A stretch of 64,000 nt of DNA from Parcubacteria group bacterium (GTDB taxonomy: Bacteria > Patescibacteriota > Minisyncoccia > Phycocordibacterales > 21-14-all-47-15). Positions 8,674-59,506 of this stretch are shown piece by piece. Every line of letters begins with the position of its first letter. Position 1 is the stretch's first letter. Below the pieces are notes generated by a model that was not told where the DNA came from, made no database searches, and was given only the letters and a program-made list of their open reading frames with translations. The stretch lies in NCBI GenBank assembly GCA_016181845.1, contig JACOYO010000003.1, forward strand, positions 16,185-80,184, given 5' to 3'. The translations under genes and the position numbers were made by a program.

Positions 8674-8711
8674 AAAAACCGCTATTCCAATATACTGGAA
8701 TAGCGGTTTTT
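8672..8711 (+). terminator. intrinsic terminator (bidirectional)
   Basis: aaaaaaaccgctattccaatatactggaatagcggttttt. Confidence 0.6.
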
Positions 8712-13504: not shown

Positions 13505-13589
13505 TTTACCCTGAATTCCAGAATTAATTGCAACACTCATGCGGCAAAACACAGCGTCTTTACAAAGCTTACAAAGGGCTGCTTGGTTT

Positions 13590-13639
13590 ACTTAGTGGTT
13601 GAACCTCTCAGTGAAAGACTATGCCAGTATACTGGCATA
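13590..13639. repeat. composite dispersed repeat: acttagtggttgaacc... palindrome (R2) next to the tatgccagtatactggcata palindrome (R1)
   Basis: The same R2+R1 juxtaposition recurs at 46704-46785. Confidence 0.6.
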
Positions 13640-13822
13640 CCATCTGACCTCTATGATATTCCGCTCGCGAAGCGGAAACGGATTGCCGTCTTTATGGTTT
13701 TTCTTCTTGCGCGTACTTGCATACTTGGTAGCTCAACTGCTAAATCAAGTGTTGCGATTAATTCTGGAATTCACCTACCATGTCATTGATAATTATCACC
13801 TTTTGGCTTACACTTGATATAT

Positions 13823-20213: not shown

Positions 20214-20413
20214 AACTACAGTATACTGATTTTCCGCGCTTTTTCTTCAATCAGAATGCTTCGCGTCTAAAAAATGATATTCGTTTTGCTTTACGAAAAA
20301 TGAAAAACTCCTCGCAAGACTCGTCAAACAATTTCATTTTTCTACAAAACTCGTTCATTTTTAAAGCCGCTACGCAATGATTTCAGAAAAAGCGCGGAAA
20401 ATTTGTTTTTTTA

Positions 20414-28634: not shown

Positions 28635-28721
28635 AAAATTAGCGAATTAGGTTTTAGTTTATTTTCCAGAGAAAATTATGCGCGTTCTGCGAATAATACA
28701 GGTTCGTAATTCATGACTTGA

Positions 28722-50487: not shown

Positions 50488-50538
50488 AGATTTATATTAT
50501 AACAAACGATAAGGATTTTGCTCGTTGTTATGATAGGA

Positions 50539-50680
50539 CTTGCTTTTTAAGACGTCCGACTTCTGCAATGGTAAAATATCTGCACTTGCCACAAATAAAG
50601 TAATTACCACATCAGAAGTCGGACGTCTAAACGGCCAATGTCGATGTGTTACCATTGCAGAGGTCGGGCGTCTAAAGAGG
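50539..50680. promoter_or_regulatory. inverted-repeat triplet allowing alternative pairings, in a divergent intergenic region
   Basis: agacgtccgacttctg-caatggtaa ... cagaagtcggacgtct ... ttaccattg-cagaggtcgggcgtct. Confidence 0.35.
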
Positions 50681-50720
50681 TAATTTCTTTCCATCACAAA
50701 ACAAAAAGGAGGTGATAACC

Positions 50721-50990: not shown

Positions 50991-51255
50991 CCCGCCCCCT
51001 TCCTTATGCCCTCGGCAAAACATTGGTTTCTGTCGGGGGCATTCTTTATTTCGTCTAGCGAGGAGCGAAATGAGAATCGCAATTCTCATTTCGTCCGAGC
51101 GAAGACGAAACACAGGTTAATACATCGCAGCTAGGCTAGCGAGATTGTACTAGCAAAGCGAGTTCCTGAAATACCTCGGAGCTTTGCTCCGAGGAACCTT
51201 TATATTTGTGCTATTTTTTATACAGTCTTCACAAAAAGAAAAACCTGTGCTATAA

Positions 51256-52092
51256 TTGTTAAAAATCATTATGCAGAAAAAATATCTCCCATCCAAACAC
51301 CGGCCGAAACAAGCGCGCGCGACAAATCAGAAAAAAACATCGTGGGGTCCGGTCGCATCATGGTATGACACTATGCTCGCGGACACGGAATCATATCAAC
51401 GGAAAGTCATCCTCCCAAACTTGCTCCGTCTTTTGGATATTAAAAAGGGAACGCGCATGATTGATATCGCCTGCGGACAAGGTTTTTTTACCAATGAGTT
51501 CGCGCGAAACGGGGCGCGTATCACCGGCACCGACATTTCTCCGGAACTTATCGCCATTGCAAAAAAAGATTCACCAAAAGAAGCTGGCTTTGCCGTCTCC
51601 CCCGCCGACACGCTTTCTTTTGCAAAAAACGATAGCGTTGACGCCGTCACTATTATTTTGGCAATACAAAACATCAACCCAATTCATACAGTCTTTCGCG
51701 AATGTTTCCGCGTCTTGCGCGCTGGCGGCACTCTCAATATGGTAATGAACCATCCGTCGTTTCGTATTCCAAAATCAAGCGATTGGCAATTTGACGCCGG
51801 CGCAAACACGCAATACCGCCGCATCAGCCGCTATCTTTCGGAATCACGGGCAGAGATTGAAATGCACCCTGGCGACAAAAAGAATGCCGCCAAAACTATT
51901 TCATTTCACCGCCCGCTTCAAGTTTATATAAAAAATCTTACCAACGCGGGCTTCCTAATTGACCGCCTGGAAGAATGGGCGTCGCACAAAAAAAGCGGGC
52001 GCGGTCCGCGGCAAACCGCAGAAGACACCGCGCGAAAAGAGATTCCACTTTTTTTATTTCTCCGCGCAAGAAAAAATACGCTGTCTAAATAA
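51256..52092 (+). CDS. class I SAM-dependent methyltransferase
   Basis: Motif I IDIACGQGFF, then ARITGTDIS.... Confidence 0.8.
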   Translation: MLKIIMQKKYLPSKHRPKQARATNQKKTSWGPVASWYDTMLADTESYQRKVILPNLLRLLDIKKGTRMIDIACGQGFFTNEFARNGARITGTDISPELIAIAKKDSPKEAGFAVSPADTLSFAKNDSVDAVTIILAIQNINPIHTVFRECFRVLRAGGTLNMVMNHPSFRIPKSSDWQFDAGANTQYRRISRYLSESRAEIEMHPGDKKNAAKTISFHRPLQVYIKNLTNAGFLIDRLEEWASHKKSGRGPRQTAEDTARKEIPLFLFLRARKNTLSK

Positions 52093-52151
52093 TCATAGAT
52101 AATCACTCATAATAACTCTTATACTTTTCTTATATTTTATACTCTTAATAT

Positions 52152-52191
52152 ATTCGCGGTCGCGAATATATTAAGAGTATGTTAAAGTCAA
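52152..52191. repeat. AT-rich 18-bp-arm inverted repeat (actcttaatatattcgcg / cgcgaatatattaagagt)
   Basis: Lies between the methyltransferase and the pseudouridine-synthase genes. Confidence 0.45.
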
Positions 52192-52253
52192 TAAATTCAT
52201 AAATTTACATAAATTCAAAATAATAAAAATAAAATAAATTTAAACTTACGTTT

Positions 52254-52973
52254 ATGCGCATTCAAAAATATCTTTCAGGAAAAGGCATCCTCTCACGACG
52301 CGAAGCGGAGCGAGCGCTTGTGGCTGGGCGTATCCGTGTTAATGGCGTTGTGGTGAAAACGCTCGGCACGAGTGTCAATCCGGATATCGACCGCGTTGAA
52401 TTCACGGAAGGAAAAACGAAGCACGGAAAGTCAGCGCAAAAAACATTCGCTGTATACAAACCGCGCGGTATCGTTTGCTCACAAAACAGCGCGGAAGGAA
52501 AAACTATTTTTGACCTTTTGCCGGCGTTAAAAAAATTTAATCTCAATACAGTCGGGCGGCTTGATAAAGAAAGCGAGGGGCTCTTGCTTCTTTCAAACGA
52601 TGGCGTAATCGCCAGCGCCATTACCGGAGACAAGCATCTGGTTGAAAAAGAATACGAGGTAACCGTGCGCGAGCGCGTCACTCCGTCTGCGCTGAAAAAA
52701 ATGGAGAGTGGCATTAAACTGGAAGACGGCATGACGCTTCCAGCAAAAACAAAAAAAATAAAAGAGCACGTGTTTCGCATTATTCTTGTTGAGGGCAGAA
52801 ATCATCAAATACGCCGCATGACAAACGCACTGCGCCTCACGATAAGCTCACTCAAGCGCGTGCGTATCGGCAACATAACGCTTAATAATATCCCGTCCGG
52901 AACATACCGAGAATTAACCAACAAAGAAGCCCTGGATTTAAAGGATATCGCGTTTCAAAAGACAAAAAAATAA
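52254..52973 (+). CDS. rluB: RsuA/RluB-family 23S/16S rRNA pseudouridine synthase (S4 domain plus catalytic domain)
   Basis: S4 RNA-binding N-terminus and a GRLDKESEGLLLLSNDG catalytic-Asp motif. Confidence 0.8.
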   Translation: MRIQKYLSGKGILSRREAERALVAGRIRVNGVVVKTLGTSVNPDIDRVEFTEGKTKHGKSAQKTFAVYKPRGIVCSQNSAEGKTIFDLLPALKKFNLNTVGRLDKESEGLLLLSNDGVIASAITGDKHLVEKEYEVTVRERVTPSALKKMESGIKLEDGMTLPAKTKKIKEHVFRIILVEGRNHQIRRMTNALRLTISSLKRVRIGNITLNNIPSGTYRELTNKEALDLKDIAFQKTKK

Positions 52974-52978
52974 AGTGC

Positions 52979-53007
52979 TTGACAAATATATTGAAAGGTG
53001 CTATACT
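52979..53007 (+). promoter_or_regulatory. consensus sigma-70 promoter TTGACA-17-TATACT
   Basis: TTGACA 52979-52984, 17-nt spacer, TATACT 53002-53007. It starts a 5' leader of about 220 nt. Confidence 0.55.
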
Positions 53008-53090
53008 TGCAACAGTATTGAAAATGACTCTTGGATAACGTAGATTAAAAATAGGTTATCATAGAAAGGAAAGGGCAAAACTTCGTACGA

Positions 53091-53169
53091 AATCTCGGAC
53101 AAGTTGCCGACTCTATCCCTAGTGAAAGGGATTTTGACGTCGTCAATTTATCCGAGATTTTGTTTTTTG
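53091..53169 (+). terminator. leader-embedded branched hairpin plus T-tract (attenuator or riboswitch-like expression platform)
   Basis: aatctcggacaa...(atccctagtgaaagggat)...(ttgacgtcgtcaa)...ttatccgagattttgttttttg. Confidence 0.4.
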
Positions 53170-53232
53170 AAACATTTTTCTCTAAAAATCGGAGAAAAAT
53201 CATAAACCACCATCTCTAGAAAGGAGACGGTC

Positions 53233-53793
53233 ATGAAAACAAATCGCTCGAGCTTTCTATCAGTAATTTTCCTTTGCGCGGCGATGATTGTGTTCACCGC
53301 CGCCTCCAACGCTTCTGCCATTACTCCGGATGAGTGGCAGGAGTTAATCAACCGTTTGGAGTATTTTGATCTTATTCCGGACGGAGAAGTCGCGGTGCTT
53401 AATGACTGTGGCGTAAGAACTGAGAAATACAAAATCTTGTTCGGCGCGCTTCATGGTGTGCGCGTCAGCGGTCCGAATATGCCGCGATTTGATGAAAATC
53501 TTCCCGATAAACCGAGAATAAGGGGGAACAATTTTGTGGTAACACTCGGCGCCGGGGAAAATGGATACACCGGTCCATGGGGATATGAAATATTCACAAT
53601 CCCCAGAGACGATACCCTTTTTGCCATTATTTTGGGAAAAATGGAATCGGTGAGACCGATATGGTTTTTGAGATGGTATCCAATTTCTGCAAAAGAATTT
53701 AAAAAATTTTGCGGAAATTATGTACCATACGACCCGCTTGGAATCGGGAAAACATGGGCTCCGGATGGTAGTGGCCCATTAACATTAAAATAA
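53233..53793 (+). CDS. secreted hypothetical protein
   Basis: Signal peptide MKTNRSSFLSVIFLCAAMIVFTAASNASA (AAAGGAG upstream). No recognisable domain. Confidence 0.5.
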   Translation: MKTNRSSFLSVIFLCAAMIVFTAASNASAITPDEWQELINRLEYFDLIPDGEVAVLNDCGVRTEKYKILFGALHGVRVSGPNMPRFDENLPDKPRIRGNNFVVTLGAGENGYTGPWGYEIFTIPRDDTLFAIILGKMESVRPIWFLRWYPISAKEFKKFCGNYVPYDPLGIGKTWAPDGSGPLTLK

Positions 53794-53845
53794 GCATTAT
53801 TTTGCGGGCTTTGCTAACGCAAAGCCCGCTTCACGATTATTTTTG

Positions 53846-53882
53846 CAAAACAAAAGGCAGTCTGAATGCTAGACTGCCTTTT
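53846..53882 (-). terminator. intrinsic terminator of the minus-strand His-rich gene
   Basis: aaggcagtct-gaatgct-agactgcctt, with a T-tract on the minus strand. Confidence 0.5.
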
Positions 53883-53899
53883 AACGTACTCTGGGGCTC

Positions 53900-54241
53900 T
53901 TATTTATGGTGCGGACATTGATGCCCGTCGCCGTGGCCGCCGCCATGTTCTTCACCGCCGGCTTGGTGATGCGGACATACATGCCCGTCTTTCTGCATGT
54001 GTTCATGATTCATGCCGGGGTCAGACGGTGCTGGCGCGGGGGCAGGAGCGGCTTCAGGAGTAGCTTTTTCTCCATCCGCTTTGTGCATCGGACAACCGGC
54101 CATATGACCGCCTTCAGGGGTCATCATTTCATGACCGCCCATCCCCTTGCCTTCATCGTGACCGCCGCAGGCAAACACACTGCCCAAGCCGAAAAATAAT
54201 CCAAAAACCACTGCCAACAAAACCACAGTTGCCTTTTTCAT
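53900..54241 (-). CDS. His/Met/Cys-rich putative metal-binding (lipo)protein
   Basis: Signal and lipobox-like ...LGSVFAC. The mature part is packed with H, M, C, G: GGHEMM, GCPMH, HEHM, HVCPHH, HGGGHGDGHQCPHH. Confidence 0.55.
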   Translation of the reverse strand: MKKATVVLLAVVFGLFFGLGSVFACGGHDEGKGMGGHEMMTPEGGHMAGCPMHKADGEKATPEAAPAPAPAPSDPGMNHEHMQKDGHVCPHHQAGGEEHGGGHGDGHQCPHHK

Positions 54242-54477
54242 GCATATTCCTCCTAAATGAAGGATTTATAATAGCCGTTTCGGAGGCAACATCTGCCGCA
54301 CGGCACCGTACTTCTATTACTGATTTAACGCTAGGCTTCAGCAATCCTTTTGTCAAGCCATACGTATATGAACTTGTTCAGCAATTTGTCAAATCGGTAT
54401 CCATCTTTAAAAACATCGCCGTAGTGATACACTAAAAAGCAGTTGTTCATTGTATAACATTATTCAAGGAGGCTCCA

Positions 54478-56211
54478 TTGCGAAAAATTTTTAACGCCGT
54501 TGCTTTGTATTGCTATATTCTTTTTCTATCGTCAGAAGCTCAAGCCTTCATTAAACAAAAAGAAATAGCGCTCACGTTTGATGACGAGATACGCTCTGCC
54601 CTCTTTTTTGGCAATGGCGGCCTATCGGAAACCTTAAAAGAAAATGACGCGCATGCGACTTTTTTTGTTTTGGGCTATCAGGTAAAGTCTTCTCCGGAAC
54701 TTTTCAAAACTCTCACGGCCCAAGGACATGAGATTGAAAATCACACATGGGGGCATGAAAATCTTTCCAAACTGGTAACACAGGGGGGTGTTGAAGTCGC
54801 GTTAAAAAACATTGAGAAGACGTCGTCTGAAATTCTATCTGTAACAGGACGCCGGCCAACTTTTTTACGCCCGCCGTATTGGGCGATGCCGAAAGATTTG
54901 AAAGTGGCTCTCGAAAAAACCGGCTATCGGGTGATGATGATTGGAAGTCCTGATATCAATACGCTCGATTATGAAGATGCCGACAAGAAGCGCCCGTCAT
55001 CAGTGCTTGCATCGCGAGTGATAAAAATAATAACCAAACGAGAAACGCACGGCACCTATCGGCATGTCTTGGTATTTCACCAGACGCCACAAACGAGAGA
55101 TACGTTAAGAGAAATTCTTCCGATACTTCGGCGGCAAGGATACAGTTTTGTCACGCTTCAAAAGTTTTTTACTCTTCCCGAAAAAGCGGCACAAGAAATA
55201 GATATTTTTGTTCAATATGTTTCTCTCGCAAAACCTCCACTCATTTCAGAAATACCGGTGCGCGCGCTTTATTTGAGCATTGATAACCTCTCGAACAAAA
55301 AGAAAATCGCTTCCATTGAGCGTATTCTTGAAACAACCGATGCGAATGCCTTGGTTATTGATTTCAAAATTGACGCGATTGCACCTGAAAAAATAATTCG
55401 TGGACTCTTAGCGCAATTCAAAAAATCAAAGATGTATCTGATCGCAAGAATCAGTGTCATGCAAGATTCCCGCTTCGCGCGACGCAATCCAGGCGTAGCG
55501 TTACATCGGCCGGATGGCAGCCTTTGGTGGAGCGGACGAAAAGAATGGGGGCGATACTGGGTAGACCCGGCAAGTCCAGAAGTTTTGGCCTACGCCATTG
55601 AGGTCGCGAAGCGCGCGGTAGACCTTGGATTTGATGAAATCAATTTTGATTACATCCGCTTCCCCACTGACGGCGACCTCCGTTCAATCGTGTATCCGAT
55701 TTATAATCCGAACACGGCAACAAAATCGTCAGTCATGAATCGTTTTTCGAGCGAACTCACGAAGGCATTGAGGTCCTACCGCCCGCATATCAAACTTTCC
55801 ATTGACCTTTTCGGCGAAGTAGTCGCGTTTGGTCATGAAAAAGAAATCGGACAAGAACTTTCTGGAGCCGCGACATATTTTGACGTCGTCGCTCCGATGG
55901 CATATCCGTCTCATTATCGCTGTGGCGAGTTCGGATTAAAAGACCCGACCGCGCACCCGTACCTGGTGTATATAAAAACGCTTGCTCCGGCAAAAAAATT
56001 TCTTGCAAAAAACTATCCAAAGGTAATTATTCGTCCTTGGATTCAGGCGTTTAGCATACCGAGCATTTATCGGTGCGGCCCTTACGTACCCTACGGACCT
56101 GAAAAGATACGAGAGCAAATTCAAGCAGGCATGGACCTTGATATTTCCTCCTTTATGCTCTGGAATGCCGGAAGTATTTACTCACCGCAATACTTTCTGG
56201 CAAAACAATAA
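54478..56211 (+). CDS. PgaB/IcaB-like polysaccharide deacetylase (CE4 NodB domain) with a C-terminal glycoside-hydrolase-like domain
   Basis: TTG start behind AAGGAGG. CE4 motifs LTFDDE and NHTWGHE; the C-terminal ~300 aa resemble the PgaB C-terminal (GH-like/DUF4015-type) domain. Confidence 0.6.
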   Translation: MRKIFNAVALYCYILFLSSEAQAFIKQKEIALTFDDEIRSALFFGNGGLSETLKENDAHATFFVLGYQVKSSPELFKTLTAQGHEIENHTWGHENLSKLVTQGGVEVALKNIEKTSSEILSVTGRRPTFLRPPYWAMPKDLKVALEKTGYRVMMIGSPDINTLDYEDADKKRPSSVLASRVIKIITKRETHGTYRHVLVFHQTPQTRDTLREILPILRRQGYSFVTLQKFFTLPEKAAQEIDIFVQYVSLAKPPLISEIPVRALYLSIDNLSNKKKIASIERILETTDANALVIDFKIDAIAPEKIIRGLLAQFKKSKMYLIARISVMQDSRFARRNPGVALHRPDGSLWWSGRKEWGRYWVDPASPEVLAYAIEVAKRAVDLGFDEINFDYIRFPTDGDLRSIVYPIYNPNTATKSSVMNRFSSELTKALRSYRPHIKLSIDLFGEVVAFGHEKEIGQELSGAATYFDVVAPMAYPSHYRCGEFGLKDPTAHPYLVYIKTLAPAKKFLAKNYPKVIIRPWIQAFSIPSIYRCGPYVPYGPEKIREQIQAGMDLDISSFMLWNAGSIYSPQYFLAKQ

Positions 56212-56218
56212 CTGATCC

Positions 56219-56262
56219 AAAAACCCCGCGCGCCAGAATACTACGCGGGGTTTCTTTTTTTA
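56219..56262 (+). terminator. intrinsic terminator
   Basis: aaaaccccgcg...cgcggggtttcttttttt. Confidence 0.6.
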
Positions 56263-56286
56263 TATTTTTAGAAAAACTTTTACAAA

Positions 56287-56520
56287 TCGTGAATTACGAA
56301 ACTCTCTTTTTGACACGGCCGCAGGGTTGAAAAGCGAAGAAGCTTTTCAAAACCTTTTGAGATATATTGCGAGTTTGAGAAGCAATATATCCAAAAGGTG
56401 TACTGCTCATGTAATGAGAGGAGCTTGGTTTTTGCGAAGCAAAATACGAGCCCGAGGACAAGCGAGGCCGCCGCTGGAAGCGGCCGAGCGGTGTCAAAAA
56501 GAGAGTTTCGTAATTCACAG
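56287..56520. mobile_element. MITE-like element: 28-bp perfect terminal inverted repeats flanked by a 7-bp direct repeat TTACAAA
   Basis: TIR-L gtgaattacgaaactctctttttgacac (56290-56317). TIR-R gtgtcaaaaagagagtttcgtaattcac (56491-56518). TTACAAA at 56280-56286 and 56521-56527. The GC-richer core of about 170 bp has no ORF. Confidence 0.5.
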
Positions 56521-56547
56521 TTACAAACAGACGGATTATATGCAATA

Positions 56548-57813
56548 ATGCTCTTATCTATGGATTCAGTTCGCGACATTGCAACCCTAACCGCTCTTTT
56601 TTTCTCGCTTTATTTTGAGATTTTTATGCTGATTACCTATTTGGAACGCAGAAAAATCTTGCATGAACGAGTGCGCTTGCCAACAGATACACACGCTGGT
56701 CTTCCAGGGGTAACCATCATTGTGCCCTGCTACAACGAAGAAAACACGCTCACAAAGACAGTGGAGTCATTGCTAAATGTAGACTACCCGAAAGACAAAC
56801 TGCATATATTGGCAATCAACGATGGCTCCACCGATGATACCGCGCTCGTACTTAAAAAATATATCGGTCATCCGCAAATAAAAGTTATCAATAAAGAAAA
56901 CGGGGGCAAACACACGGTTCTCAACCTCGGCATCGCGCGCGCCACGACCGATTTTGTCGGCTGTCTTGATGCTGATTCATACGCCAAACCAGACGCACTT
57001 ATTCGTCTTATGCGGCGTTTTGAAAATCCTCTCGTCATGGCGGTAGTGCCGTCGCTCCACGTCTCAAGCGCGGAAACACTTATCCAAAAAATGCAGTTAG
57101 TGGAATATGTTATCGGCACCTTTTTGCGAAGCATTCTTGGCGAATTAAACGCGCTATACGTCACCCCGGGACCGTTTTCTATTTTCAGAAAAAGCGTATT
57201 TGAAACTATCGGCTATTACAAACAAGCGCACAACACCGAGGATATGGAAATGGCGCTCCGCATGCAATCGCACGGTCTCATGATTGCAAGCGCCCATGAT
57301 GCCGTCGTCTACACCTCATCGCCGCGCACTCCGAAAACGCTCTACCGCCAGCGCGTGCGGTGGGTGTCGGGCTTTCTAAATAATGTGCGGGATTACCGCC
57401 ACATGCTCTTTCGCTTTCGTTATGGACATATCGGCGGTTTTATTCTGCCAATGATGCTTCTTTCAACGGCAACGGTGTTGTTTGTTGTGTCTATGTTTGC
57501 TTATGATATTTTTCTGATAACAAAGGAGACCGTATTCCGTTTTGAAGCGCTCAATACGAAAATATTTGAATTGTCGCATCCAATATGGAACTGGTTTTTC
57601 TTTTACACCTCTCCCGCGCTATTCGCCGGAGCCGCCGTCTTTTTTGTACTGCTTTGTTTTATTATCATCGGAGCCACGCTATCAAAGAGCAATTACCGCC
57701 TTACGACATTTGACATCGCCTGCTACGCCTTCCTCTACTCGCTCATCGCGCCATTTTGGATTATTCGCTCGCTTGCAAATGTCGCCTTGCGCAAACAATC
57801 CGCGTGGCGATAA
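56548..57813 (+). CDS. family-2 glycosyltransferase, PgaC/IcaA-like processive beta-glycan synthase
   Basis: Start moved to MLLSMDS, downstream of the MITE. GT2 motifs INDGSTDDT, CLDADS (DxD) and QRVRWVSG (QxxRW); TM helices at both ends. Confidence 0.7.
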   Translation: MLLSMDSVRDIATLTALFFSLYFEIFMLITYLERRKILHERVRLPTDTHAGLPGVTIIVPCYNEENTLTKTVESLLNVDYPKDKLHILAINDGSTDDTALVLKKYIGHPQIKVINKENGGKHTVLNLGIARATTDFVGCLDADSYAKPDALIRLMRRFENPLVMAVVPSLHVSSAETLIQKMQLVEYVIGTFLRSILGELNALYVTPGPFSIFRKSVFETIGYYKQAHNTEDMEMALRMQSHGLMIASAHDAVVYTSSPRTPKTLYRQRVRWVSGFLNNVRDYRHMLFRFRYGHIGGFILPMMLLSTATVLFVVSMFAYDIFLITKETVFRFEALNTKIFELSHPIWNWFFFYTSPALFAGAAVFFVLLCFIIIGATLSKSNYRLTTFDIACYAFLYSLIAPFWIIRSLANVALRKQSAWR

Positions 57814-57825
57814 CCCTCTCATCAT

Positions 57826-58482
57826 ATGCAAAAAGATTGGAAAAAATACGCGCTCGCTCTCGCTATCACTGCCGCCATTTTTATCACCGCGATAAGCATC
57901 AGCTCGTTGATAGACAACAAACGAGTAGACGAAATCCGCTCAATGCAAGATTCTATCTCTTTGAGCATTCTTTCTTCTGAAACGCAATTCAATTTACTGA
58001 AACAGGCTTCGTGCGACGACCTTTTCAGCTCCGAGCTCGGAAAAGAATTGGGGGATATGTCCGACCGCCTTTCATACATGGAATCAGCGGGCCGCGGCGA
58101 AGACCCCGACATTATAATACTGAAGCAATATTATTCACTGCTTGAAATAAAAGATTATATTTTGATAAGCTCCGCAAATAAATGTAAACATCCGCCGACC
58201 ATCGTGCTCTATTTCTACCGTGCTGATTGCCCCGACTGCGACAAGCAGGGCGATGTGCTTACCTACATCCGCCAGCATTACCCCGACAATATCCGCATCT
58301 ATTCGTTTGATTATGATTTGAATGTTTCAGCAATAAAAACGCTCGCCACTCTTTATAAAATAAAAGAGCCGCTCCCGGCATTTGTCGTAAGCGGCAAAAC
58401 ATATAACGGCTTCCATTCCGTAGAAGACATGCAAACGCTCGTACCGCAACTCGCCACGACTAGTGTAGAAAAAGTGAAATAA
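57826..58482 (+). CDS. membrane-anchored thioredoxin-fold thiol:disulfide oxidoreductase
   Basis: N-terminal TM anchor; CxxC active site in YFYRADCPDCDKQ. Confidence 0.65.
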   Translation: MQKDWKKYALALAITAAIFITAISISSLIDNKRVDEIRSMQDSISLSILSSETQFNLLKQASCDDLFSSELGKELGDMSDRLSYMESAGRGEDPDIIILKQYYSLLEIKDYILISSANKCKHPPTIVLYFYRADCPDCDKQGDVLTYIRQHYPDNIRIYSFDYDLNVSAIKTLATLYKIKEPLPAFVVSGKTYNGFHSVEDMQTLVPQLATTSVEKVK

Positions 58483-59059: not shown

Positions 59060-59099
59060 TTCGGAGCCTAAGTTGTTCTAACTGCCCGACAGGGATTCG
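59060..59099. repeat. 40-bp direct repeat copy 1 containing a 19-bp copy of the tRNA-Gln 3' end
   Basis: tcggagcctaagttgttctaactgcccgacagggattcg; identical copy at 59250-59289. Confidence 0.6.
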
Positions 59100-59249
59100 G
59101 TCACAAATAATTTTTTTACAAAAAATTTTCGCGACCCCGGCTCGGCCTCGACTTCTCCGCTTCGCTACGAAGTCGGCTTCGCGGCCTGCGCCTTTCTCAT
59201 CCCTGCGGCGCAGAGAACACCGAGAACACCCAAGTCTCCAATGCTCCGC

Positions 59250-59289
59250 ATCGGAGCCTAAGTTGTTCTAACTGCCCGACAGGGATTCG
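59250..59289. repeat. 40-bp direct repeat copy 2 (tRNA-Gln 3'-end fragment)
   Basis: Identical to 59060-59099. An inverted TTCGAATCCCTG fragment also lies at 59369-59380. Confidence 0.6.
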
Positions 59290-59430
59290 AACATTACATG
59301 TTCAGTACAGGTTTCCCATTTTTTCGCCATGCTTGCGAGCATGCCTCAAAAATATGGGAGAACCTTTTCGAATCCCTGACGAAAGTGCCATCGGGCACTT
59401 TCTTCCGTCATTTCTTCGCTTCGCTCCGAA

Positions 59431-59501
59431 CTGCCCGACAGGGATTCGAACCCCAATTAACGGCTTCAAAGGCCGCTGTCCTACCATTAGACGATCGGGC
59501 A
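59431..59501 (-). tRNA. tRNA-Gln (anticodon UUG)
   Basis: Manual fold of the reverse complement. Acceptor UGCCCGA/UCGGGCA has U1:A72, as in bacterial tRNA-Gln. D-stem GUCU/GGAC; anticodon stem GCGGC/GCCGU with loop CUUUGAA; T-arm UGGGG-UUCGAAU-CCCUG; discriminator G; CCA not encoded. Confidence 0.7.
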
Positions 59502-59506
59502 ACAAA

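Follow-up and report, generated by a model that had tools for sequence, protein, structure and literature searches.

The 64,000-nt stretch of DNA analyzed here, which we call the window, belongs to a Parcubacteria (CPR) MAG; among named relatives, a Candidatus Lloydbacteria MAG is the nearest (83-91% protein identity). At the locus of interest, a plus-strand gene at 54478-56211 (identical to P0121) encodes a PgaB-like protein with Polysacc_deac_1 and DUF4015 domains and a weak GHL13 match. It is followed, at about 56219-56263 on the same strand, by a terminator-like hairpin consisting of a 10-bp G+C-rich stem, a 13-nt loop and a T-run. The promoter/terminator scan did not call this hairpin because its loop exceeds 8 nt, and an equivalent hairpin and T-run follow the deacetylase gene in three related contigs (L014, L015 and L016). 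The next gene, at 56560-57813 (+), encodes a 417-aa GT2 of the PgaC/cellulose-synthase type (identical to P0001), and after it comes a gene for a conserved 218-aa protein with no significant Pfam match. The rest of the window carries housekeeping genes, such as rpoB, rpoC, sigma-70, dnaG, uvrABC, tgt and dnaX.

The space between the deacetylase and GT2 genes is occupied by a repeat-bounded segment. The 28-mer GTGAATTACGAAACTCTCTTTTTGACAC has exactly two occurrences in the window, at 56289-56316 (+) and 56491-56518 (-), and was found in 0 of 100 dinucleotide-preserving shuffles of the window, which bears out the perfect 28-bp inverted repeats described in the first-pass annotation. With one mismatch the arms reach 31 nt (56289-56319 on the plus strand and 56488-56518 on the minus strand; 97% complementarity), and they are spaced 168 nt apart. 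Within each arm lies a subterminal 15-mer, TGAATTACGAAACTC, at 56290-56304 (+) with its mirror copy at 56503-56517 (-), which is a candidate transposase-binding site. Outside the arms, the heptamer TTACAAA is present as a direct repeat at 56280-56286 and 56521-56527, leaving 234 bp (56287-56520) between the copies.

This heptamer had been proposed as a 7-bp target-site duplication. It is indeed duplicated on both sides, but each copy is set off from its inverted-repeat arm by 2 nt (TC at the left end, AG at the right). Because these dinucleotides are mutually non-complementary, the exact tips of the element are uncertain. When the same span was placed at every window position, a shared 7-mer occurred within the 12-nt flanks at 0.38% of positions, and at 0.10% when symmetric offsets were required. 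The chance of the TTACAAA arrangement is p of about 0.001-0.004, with the symmetric offsets corresponding to about 0.001.

Two further descriptions of the core hold in part. It was said to be GC-richer, and its G+C content of 47.6-49.4% does exceed that of the local intergenic flanks (34-37%), but it lies near the whole-window mean of 45.4%. It was also said to be free of open reading frames, whereas frame +0 runs without a stop through the whole element and mechanical ORFs of 73-99 aa can be drawn. Pfam gave no match to any of these ORFs, and searches of 5.8 billion and 1.84 billion proteins turned up no credible homologue. The 99-aa frame, used as a protein query for spurious ORFs in other copies, found no match, and the 90-aa frame found one marginal match, an unrelated repetitive protein. 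The suspicion that a 471-aa GT2 ORF starting at 56398, inside the element, was an artefact proved correct: P0001 starts at 56560 and its homologues are 416-417 aa long. For annotation, the 471-aa ORF is therefore an over-extension into the element.

The interior of the element consists of five hairpins with perfect or nearly perfect stems. Hairpin 1 (56327-56350) has 8 predicted pairs (9 are possible by eye) and the loop GCGAAGAAGC, hairpin 2 (56353-56398) has 17 pairs and one bulge, and hairpin 3 (56406-56418) has 5 pairs. Hairpin 4 (56423-56451) includes TTTTGC-GAA-GCAAAA, and hairpin 5 forms, with the inner part of the right repeat, a 42-nt stretch at 56460-56501. As RNA, the element is predicted to fold with -119.6 kcal/mol on the plus strand and -109.4 kcal/mol on the minus strand, with z of about -14 for both. 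The plus strand, which is the GT2 sense strand, thus folds better by 10 kcal/mol. The whole element is jointly spanned by L117 (window 51094-56489) and L001 (56472-59090), two independent Logan contigs of the same sample that are 100% identical to the window. Therefore, it is not an assembly artefact.

To ask what the site looks like without the segment, we turned to orthologous GT2 loci, all of them in other species than the window host. Upstream of the GT2 orthologues that are 77-79% identical (L007 and L008, ENA; L009, Logan) the segment is absent, and the upstream regions of more distant orthologues (L010-12 and L118/119) measure 57-100 nt and are likewise free of the element. It was missing upstream of every orthologous GT2 gene examined (six related contigs); no empty site was seen at the strain level. 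We then aligned the window, trimmed of 56287-56527 (the element and one TTACAAA), with the three closest loci, L007, L008 and L009 (alignment A2). The trimmed window is colinear with them and is 2 nt longer than the relatives. Invariant blocks lie directly left of the site (AAAAACTTTT) and to its right (CGG..TATGnAATAATGC..TATCTATG), and the reconstructed empty junction reads ...GAAAAACTTTTACAAACAGACGGATT....

On its left side, the empty site is anchored by only about 11 nt of A+T-rich homology. Since at least about 11 nt of GT2-type upstream sequence lies to the left of the element, the element inserted there and did not create the junction. A rearrangement through recombination between two copies was considered and rejected, as the same 7-mer stands on both flanks and the left flank is still homologous to the sequence upstream of the relatives' GT2 genes. 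The first-pass annotation had proposed a search for an empty site in related genomes and had held that the same 234 bp in distant relatives, together with a lack of any other copies of the inverted repeat, would refute an insertion; the empty site is there, and the segment is absent between and upstream of these genes in the relatives. We conclude that 56287-56520 is a real, fairly recent insertion.

The neighborhood into which it inserted has a history of its own. In relatives with 76-83% identity, the deacetylase-DUF4015 gene has its own terminator and is followed by PAP2/VTT/GT4 or peptidase genes; it retains its upstream synteny, with a pseudouridine synthase gene upstream in L015. The relatives' GT2 and 218-aa cassette adjoins greA, clpB or a trypsin-like protease gene instead. 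Only in the window genome do the deacetylase-DUF4015 gene and the GT2 cassette adjoin, as compared with L014-L016, L006-L012 and L118. These different contexts indicate that a rearrangement or acquisition placed the cassette between the deacetylase terminator and tRNA-Gln. Given this terminator and the different synteny in relatives, the two genes are separate transcription units that were joined in this lineage, and the apparent pgaB-pgaC operon is a lineage-specific juxtaposition. The earlier view that the insertion separates a pgaB-pgaC unit must consequently be given up.

Two other observations were made next to the cassette. The last 19 nt of contig L005 (SRR12113385; 1481-1499, corresponding to window 57952-57970 within the 218-aa gene) diverge from the window with 14 mismatches, and reflect either a strain variant or a chimeric contig end. 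Farther along, tRNA-Gln(ttg) lies at 59430-59502 (-), and after it the 3' portion of the tRNA recurs as two partial copies (59270-59298 and 59080-59108); there is also a 39-nt perfect direct repeat at 59061-59099 and 59251-59289. The partial copies and the direct repeat look like att-type integration scars beside the GT2 cassette.

The position of the insertion relative to the GT2 promoter bears on its likely consequences. A putative sigma-70-like promoter at 56520-56549 (+) combines GTTACA (56520-56525), an 18-nt spacer and AATAAT (56544-56549) with a TG before the -10, so that the -35 straddles the junction between element and duplication. It is the only sigma-70-like site in 56100-56700, but one such site is also the expectation from shuffled sequence, so the scan alone proves nothing. 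TGnAATAAT is nevertheless invariant among L007, L008 and L009, none of which has the element, and its position in the window is outside the element. The -10 motif stands 10 nt before the ATG at 56560, which is the NCBI start and agrees with the 416-417-aa homologues. From this spacing, we infer that the GT2 mRNA is leaderless or nearly so. GT2 genes of the window (56540-56562) and of L007, L009 and L010 lack a Shine-Dalgarno sequence and have a TG-extended -10 roughly 10 nt ahead of the ATG, a layout that suggests that these Parcubacteria make leaderless mRNAs.

Read back to the empty site, the sequence suggests a pre-insertion -35 of TTTACA, which would overlap the left TTACAAA copy (56279-56284). 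The insertion appears to have split this hexamer after its first T, and the duplication would then have given back TTACA after the element's last G. With 5/6 bases restored (GTTACA) at the same distance from the conserved -10, the core promoter would survive. The element had been credited with possibly supplying the GT2 gene with a new promoter. This does not stand, as the sole sigma-70-like -10 is not part of the element and is conserved in the relatives without the insertion; the element is probably not the source of the GT2 promoter and probably changes it little. Because the conserved -10 is downstream, the element would not belong to the GT2 mRNA.

Related ends are found in other genomes. 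Three other metagenome contigs (L004, L009 and L016) have element ends with the same subterminal 15-mer, TGAATTRCGAAACTC (R at position 7), and unrelated interiors. An alignment of eight element ends (A3) has this 15-mer in common among six, which diverge further inward. In one of the three contigs, L004, a complete element spans 1006-1146 (about 140 nt): its right end agrees with the window inverted repeat at 24/25 positions, its left arm is degenerate, its core is unrelated, and it has a fold z of -7.9. The other two contigs break inside the repeat. L009, the contig with the 79%-identical GT2, starts within an element end (...GAAAAAGAGTTTCGCAATTCA) at another locus, and L016, from a relative with a 76%-identical deacetylase, terminates exactly 30 nt after TGAATTACGAAACTC....

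These contig ends are themselves informative. Logan contigs, for which the assembly k is presumably 31, appear to stop k-1 = 30 nt into repeats; for instance, the end of L001 at 59090 is 30 nt into the 39-nt direct repeat at 59061. By this rule, the end of L016 places a repeat boundary at TGAATT. In the sample from which the window comes, L117 stops at 56489 and both L001 and L005 begin at 56472, each end lying 30 nt into 56460-56501. It follows that another sequence in this sample has exactly these 42 nt (56460-56501) in common with the element and diverges from it to either side. Inversion of the core between the inverted repeats was rejected as a cause of these breaks, for L117 is unbranched through the inner edge of the left repeat. 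As L117 and L001 are also unbroken through the outer ends, no other copy in the sample shares at least 30 nt of either terminus. The outer termini are thus unique at k = 31 in the sample, which means that the copy number in the genome is low or that the copies have diverged. A MITE family of this sort would account for short-read assembly breaks at such sites in these organisms.

The first-pass annotation had called for a search for other copies of the inverted repeat; related ends exist in L004, L009 and L016, but no second full copy is present in the window, and an exact scan of species-representative genomes with the inverted-repeat 21-mer AATTACGAAACTCTCTTTTTG found no second copy, its sole match being a chance one in L002 (same sequence in L003) within a Flavobacteriaceae coding region. 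The same scan of metagenome contigs returned one real relative, L004, plus the chance match. Viral contigs had no match to the two-arm gapped pattern of the element ends. Their one 18-mer match and 101 15-mer matches were set aside as chance, being single, without an inverted partner and in coding sequence where inspected. The element had no blastn match in plasmid and phage collections, and a weak single match in the window, TGAATTACGAACCTGT at 28698-28713, was taken as chance. No transposase domain was detected in the roughly 44 window ORFs scanned, and no autonomous element with the same ends was found in the window, the viral scans, the species-representative genomes or the metagenome contigs. 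Rfam models at gathering score recovered only tRNA in the window; with E up to 10 there were sub-threshold matches, and these are centred on the adjacent terminator.

Termini that are conserved around interiors that vary have the look of a transposase-recognised family and not of a structured RNA. Judged by its TGAATTRCGAAACTC ends, the element is probably a member of a small Parcubacteria/Paceibacteria (CPR) family. It has the small size, inverted repeats, target duplication, lack of coding capacity and empty site expected of a MITE, so the proposal of a MITE-like, non-autonomous insertion is upheld. We are accordingly fairly confident in the fuller reading that 56287-56520 is a non-autonomous terminal-inverted-repeat transposon (MITE) of a CPR family with shared 15-mer ends, and that it made a near-neutral insertion into a promoter. 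A transposase acting in trans, presumably a DDE enzyme, would have bound the element ends, and staggered cuts 7 bp apart would have produced both the insertion and the TTACAAA duplication. The insertion would have hit the promoter of the GT2 (PgaC-like) gene, probably leaderless or nearly so, within its -35 hexamer. The insertion was probably near-neutral. Its main effects would be to move the upstream A-tract about 240 bp off and to separate the deacetylase terminator from the GT2 promoter by a very stable palindrome.

The same MITE could have been co-opted after it landed, as an insulator or RNase III processing site (a 29-bp stem, as in Correia elements) or as a -35 or upstream activating sequence, with a change in GT2 expression. 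Such effects are documented for Correia elements and other MITEs (PMC10969869). Here, the present -35-like hexamer begins with the element's last base, and read-through RNA would form a 28-29-bp perfect duplex. However, the deacetylase gene already has a strong terminator-like hairpin and T-run that is conserved in relatives, and the pre-insertion TTTACA was, if anything, nearer to consensus than the present GTTACA. On balance, we regard co-option as rather unlikely.

A different origin altogether is less probable again. The segment might be a palindromic repeat that was moved or made in another way, either REP/BIME-like via Y1/HUH enzymes (RAYT or IS200/IS605-type) or by nested-hairpin foldback, with TTACAAA being incidental. 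The core, which consists wholly of perfect hairpins, gives this idea its appeal; two of them have GC-GAA-GC motifs, and such motifs form very stable DNA mini-hairpins. The window is also rich in dispersed short palindromes (families D1 and D2, 5 copies each), copies of which sit in the core of a second TGAATT...AATTCA-bounded element at 13512-13773, and no DDE transposase was found among the window ORFs scanned. Nevertheless, a 7-bp direct repeat at symmetric offsets is seldom met by chance and suits a staggered-cut insertion. Across the family it is the termini that are conserved and not the hairpins, none of the core hairpins was found again elsewhere in the window or in related loci, and no Y1/HUH gene was seen in the window. 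We therefore consider this origin improbable.

Least credible, and very improbable in our estimate, is the idea of a native structured RNA whose closing stem is an RNA helix, whether it serves the GT2 gene as a 5' leader or riboswitch or represents a small RNA gene; this idea would draw on the very stable multi-branched fold (z = -14), the better folding of the sense strand and a position directly upstream of a polysaccharide-synthase gene, a class often riboswitch-controlled, but is opposed by the absence of the element upstream of every orthologous GT2 gene examined, by the absence of any Rfam match on the element even at E = 10 (the listed matches sit on the neighboring terminator), by stems that are perfect at the DNA level on both strands, by relatives that have the termini in common and different interiors, and by the conserved -10 downstream, which would leave the element outside the GT2 mRNA.

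Other repeats in the window are worth recording. The element at 13512-13773 has TGAATT...AATTCA ends, 26-nt inverted repeats at 96%, a length of 262 bp and an RNA fold z of -6.5. It is placed much like 56287-56520, just past a terminator-like hairpin and ahead of the next plus-strand gene. Its flanks carry the imperfect direct repeat TTACC / CTACC, its core holds copies of two dispersed palindromes, and it may belong to the same superfamily as the 56287-56520 element. One palindrome family, ACTATGCCAGTATACTGGCATAGT, has five copies at 8681, 13618, 21810, 36259 and 46702; another, CACTTAGTGGTTGAACCACTAAGTG, has five at 13587, 39442, 40961, 46730 and 49948. Members of both are 24-29 nt long, perfect or near-perfect, intergenic and sometimes side by side. 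Further duplicated hairpins lie at 2126/2208, 4677/4724 and 4640/7553/59037. Taken together, they resemble a load of REP-like repeats, which is unusual in a small CPR genome. Long imperfect inverted repeats also occupy intergenic positions at 50532-50691 (59-nt arms, 75%) and 20229-20402 (25-nt arms, 92%, 124 nt apart).

CPR/Patescibacteria genomes are about 1 Mb in size, streamlined and usually thought poor in mobile DNA. A perfect-ended MITE family would mean that transposition still shapes their intergenic regions and promoters, and it would provide a marker of strain-level variation. A bolder extension of the MITE reading, which we offer as doubtful speculation, is that the TGAATTRCGAAACTC-ended elements, possibly with 13512-13773, are the first recognised CPR MITE family. 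They would be moved by a transposase of these very small genomes, would have been recently active (as the perfect 28-nt ends hint), and would land in and rebuild -35 boxes, re-wiring surface-polysaccharide genes; the hairpin-only GC-GAA-GC cores might even mean a single-stranded-DNA step. Our full-text literature search found nothing on MITEs in CPR/Patescibacteria, and a 2024 review of prokaryotic MITEs makes no mention of CPR or Patescibacteria (PMC10969869). The element seems to be a MITE of an ordinary kind, in a lineage from which such elements are apparently unreported.

Among known systems, the intergenic palindromic repeats REP/BIME, ERIC, RUP, BOX and SPRITE resemble the window element in often lying beside terminators and in being very stable as RNA. 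As with REP-type repeats, the window genome also has dispersed palindromes of 24-29 nt. A REP element, however, is one hairpin (an imperfect palindrome) of 20-40 nt, lacks a target duplication and is associated with RAYT genes. An element of 234 bp whose terminal repeats are 28 nt long, with five hairpins inside and a duplication at its flanks, does not belong with REP/BIME. Assignment to an Rfam RNA family (riboswitch, leader, sRNA or HEARO/omega-RNA) was likewise rejected, with no covariance-model match at gathering score.

The closest architectural match is QMITE2 of Coxiella burnetii, whose direct repeats measure 7-9 bp, its inverted repeats 23-29 bp and its core 113-145 bp, and whose transcript has a predicted fold of about -113 kcal/mol (PMC10969869). 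Like QMITE2, the window element is short and non-coding, with inverted repeats of 28 bp, direct repeats of 7 bp and a fold of -119.6 kcal/mol, a core of one to two hundred bp and an intergenic A+T-rich target. Unlike QMITE2, it has a CPR host, an apparently low copy number and no known parent insertion sequence; the likeness shown is one of architecture.

Correia elements are characterized by a TA duplication, their own inverted-repeat sequence, an IHF site and hundreds of copies. The window element differs in its 7-bp duplication, in ends that are unrelated by eye and in its five-hairpin core, and membership was rejected on the TA duplication, which here is replaced by TTACAAA. Nevertheless, Correia elements (CREE/NEMIS) of Neisseria are about 100-160 bp long, bounded by inverted repeats and located just upstream of genes; promoter hexamers can come from their ends, and RNase III acts on their inverted-repeat stem in co-transcripts (PMC10969869). 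By analogy, they may offer the best functional model for the window element.
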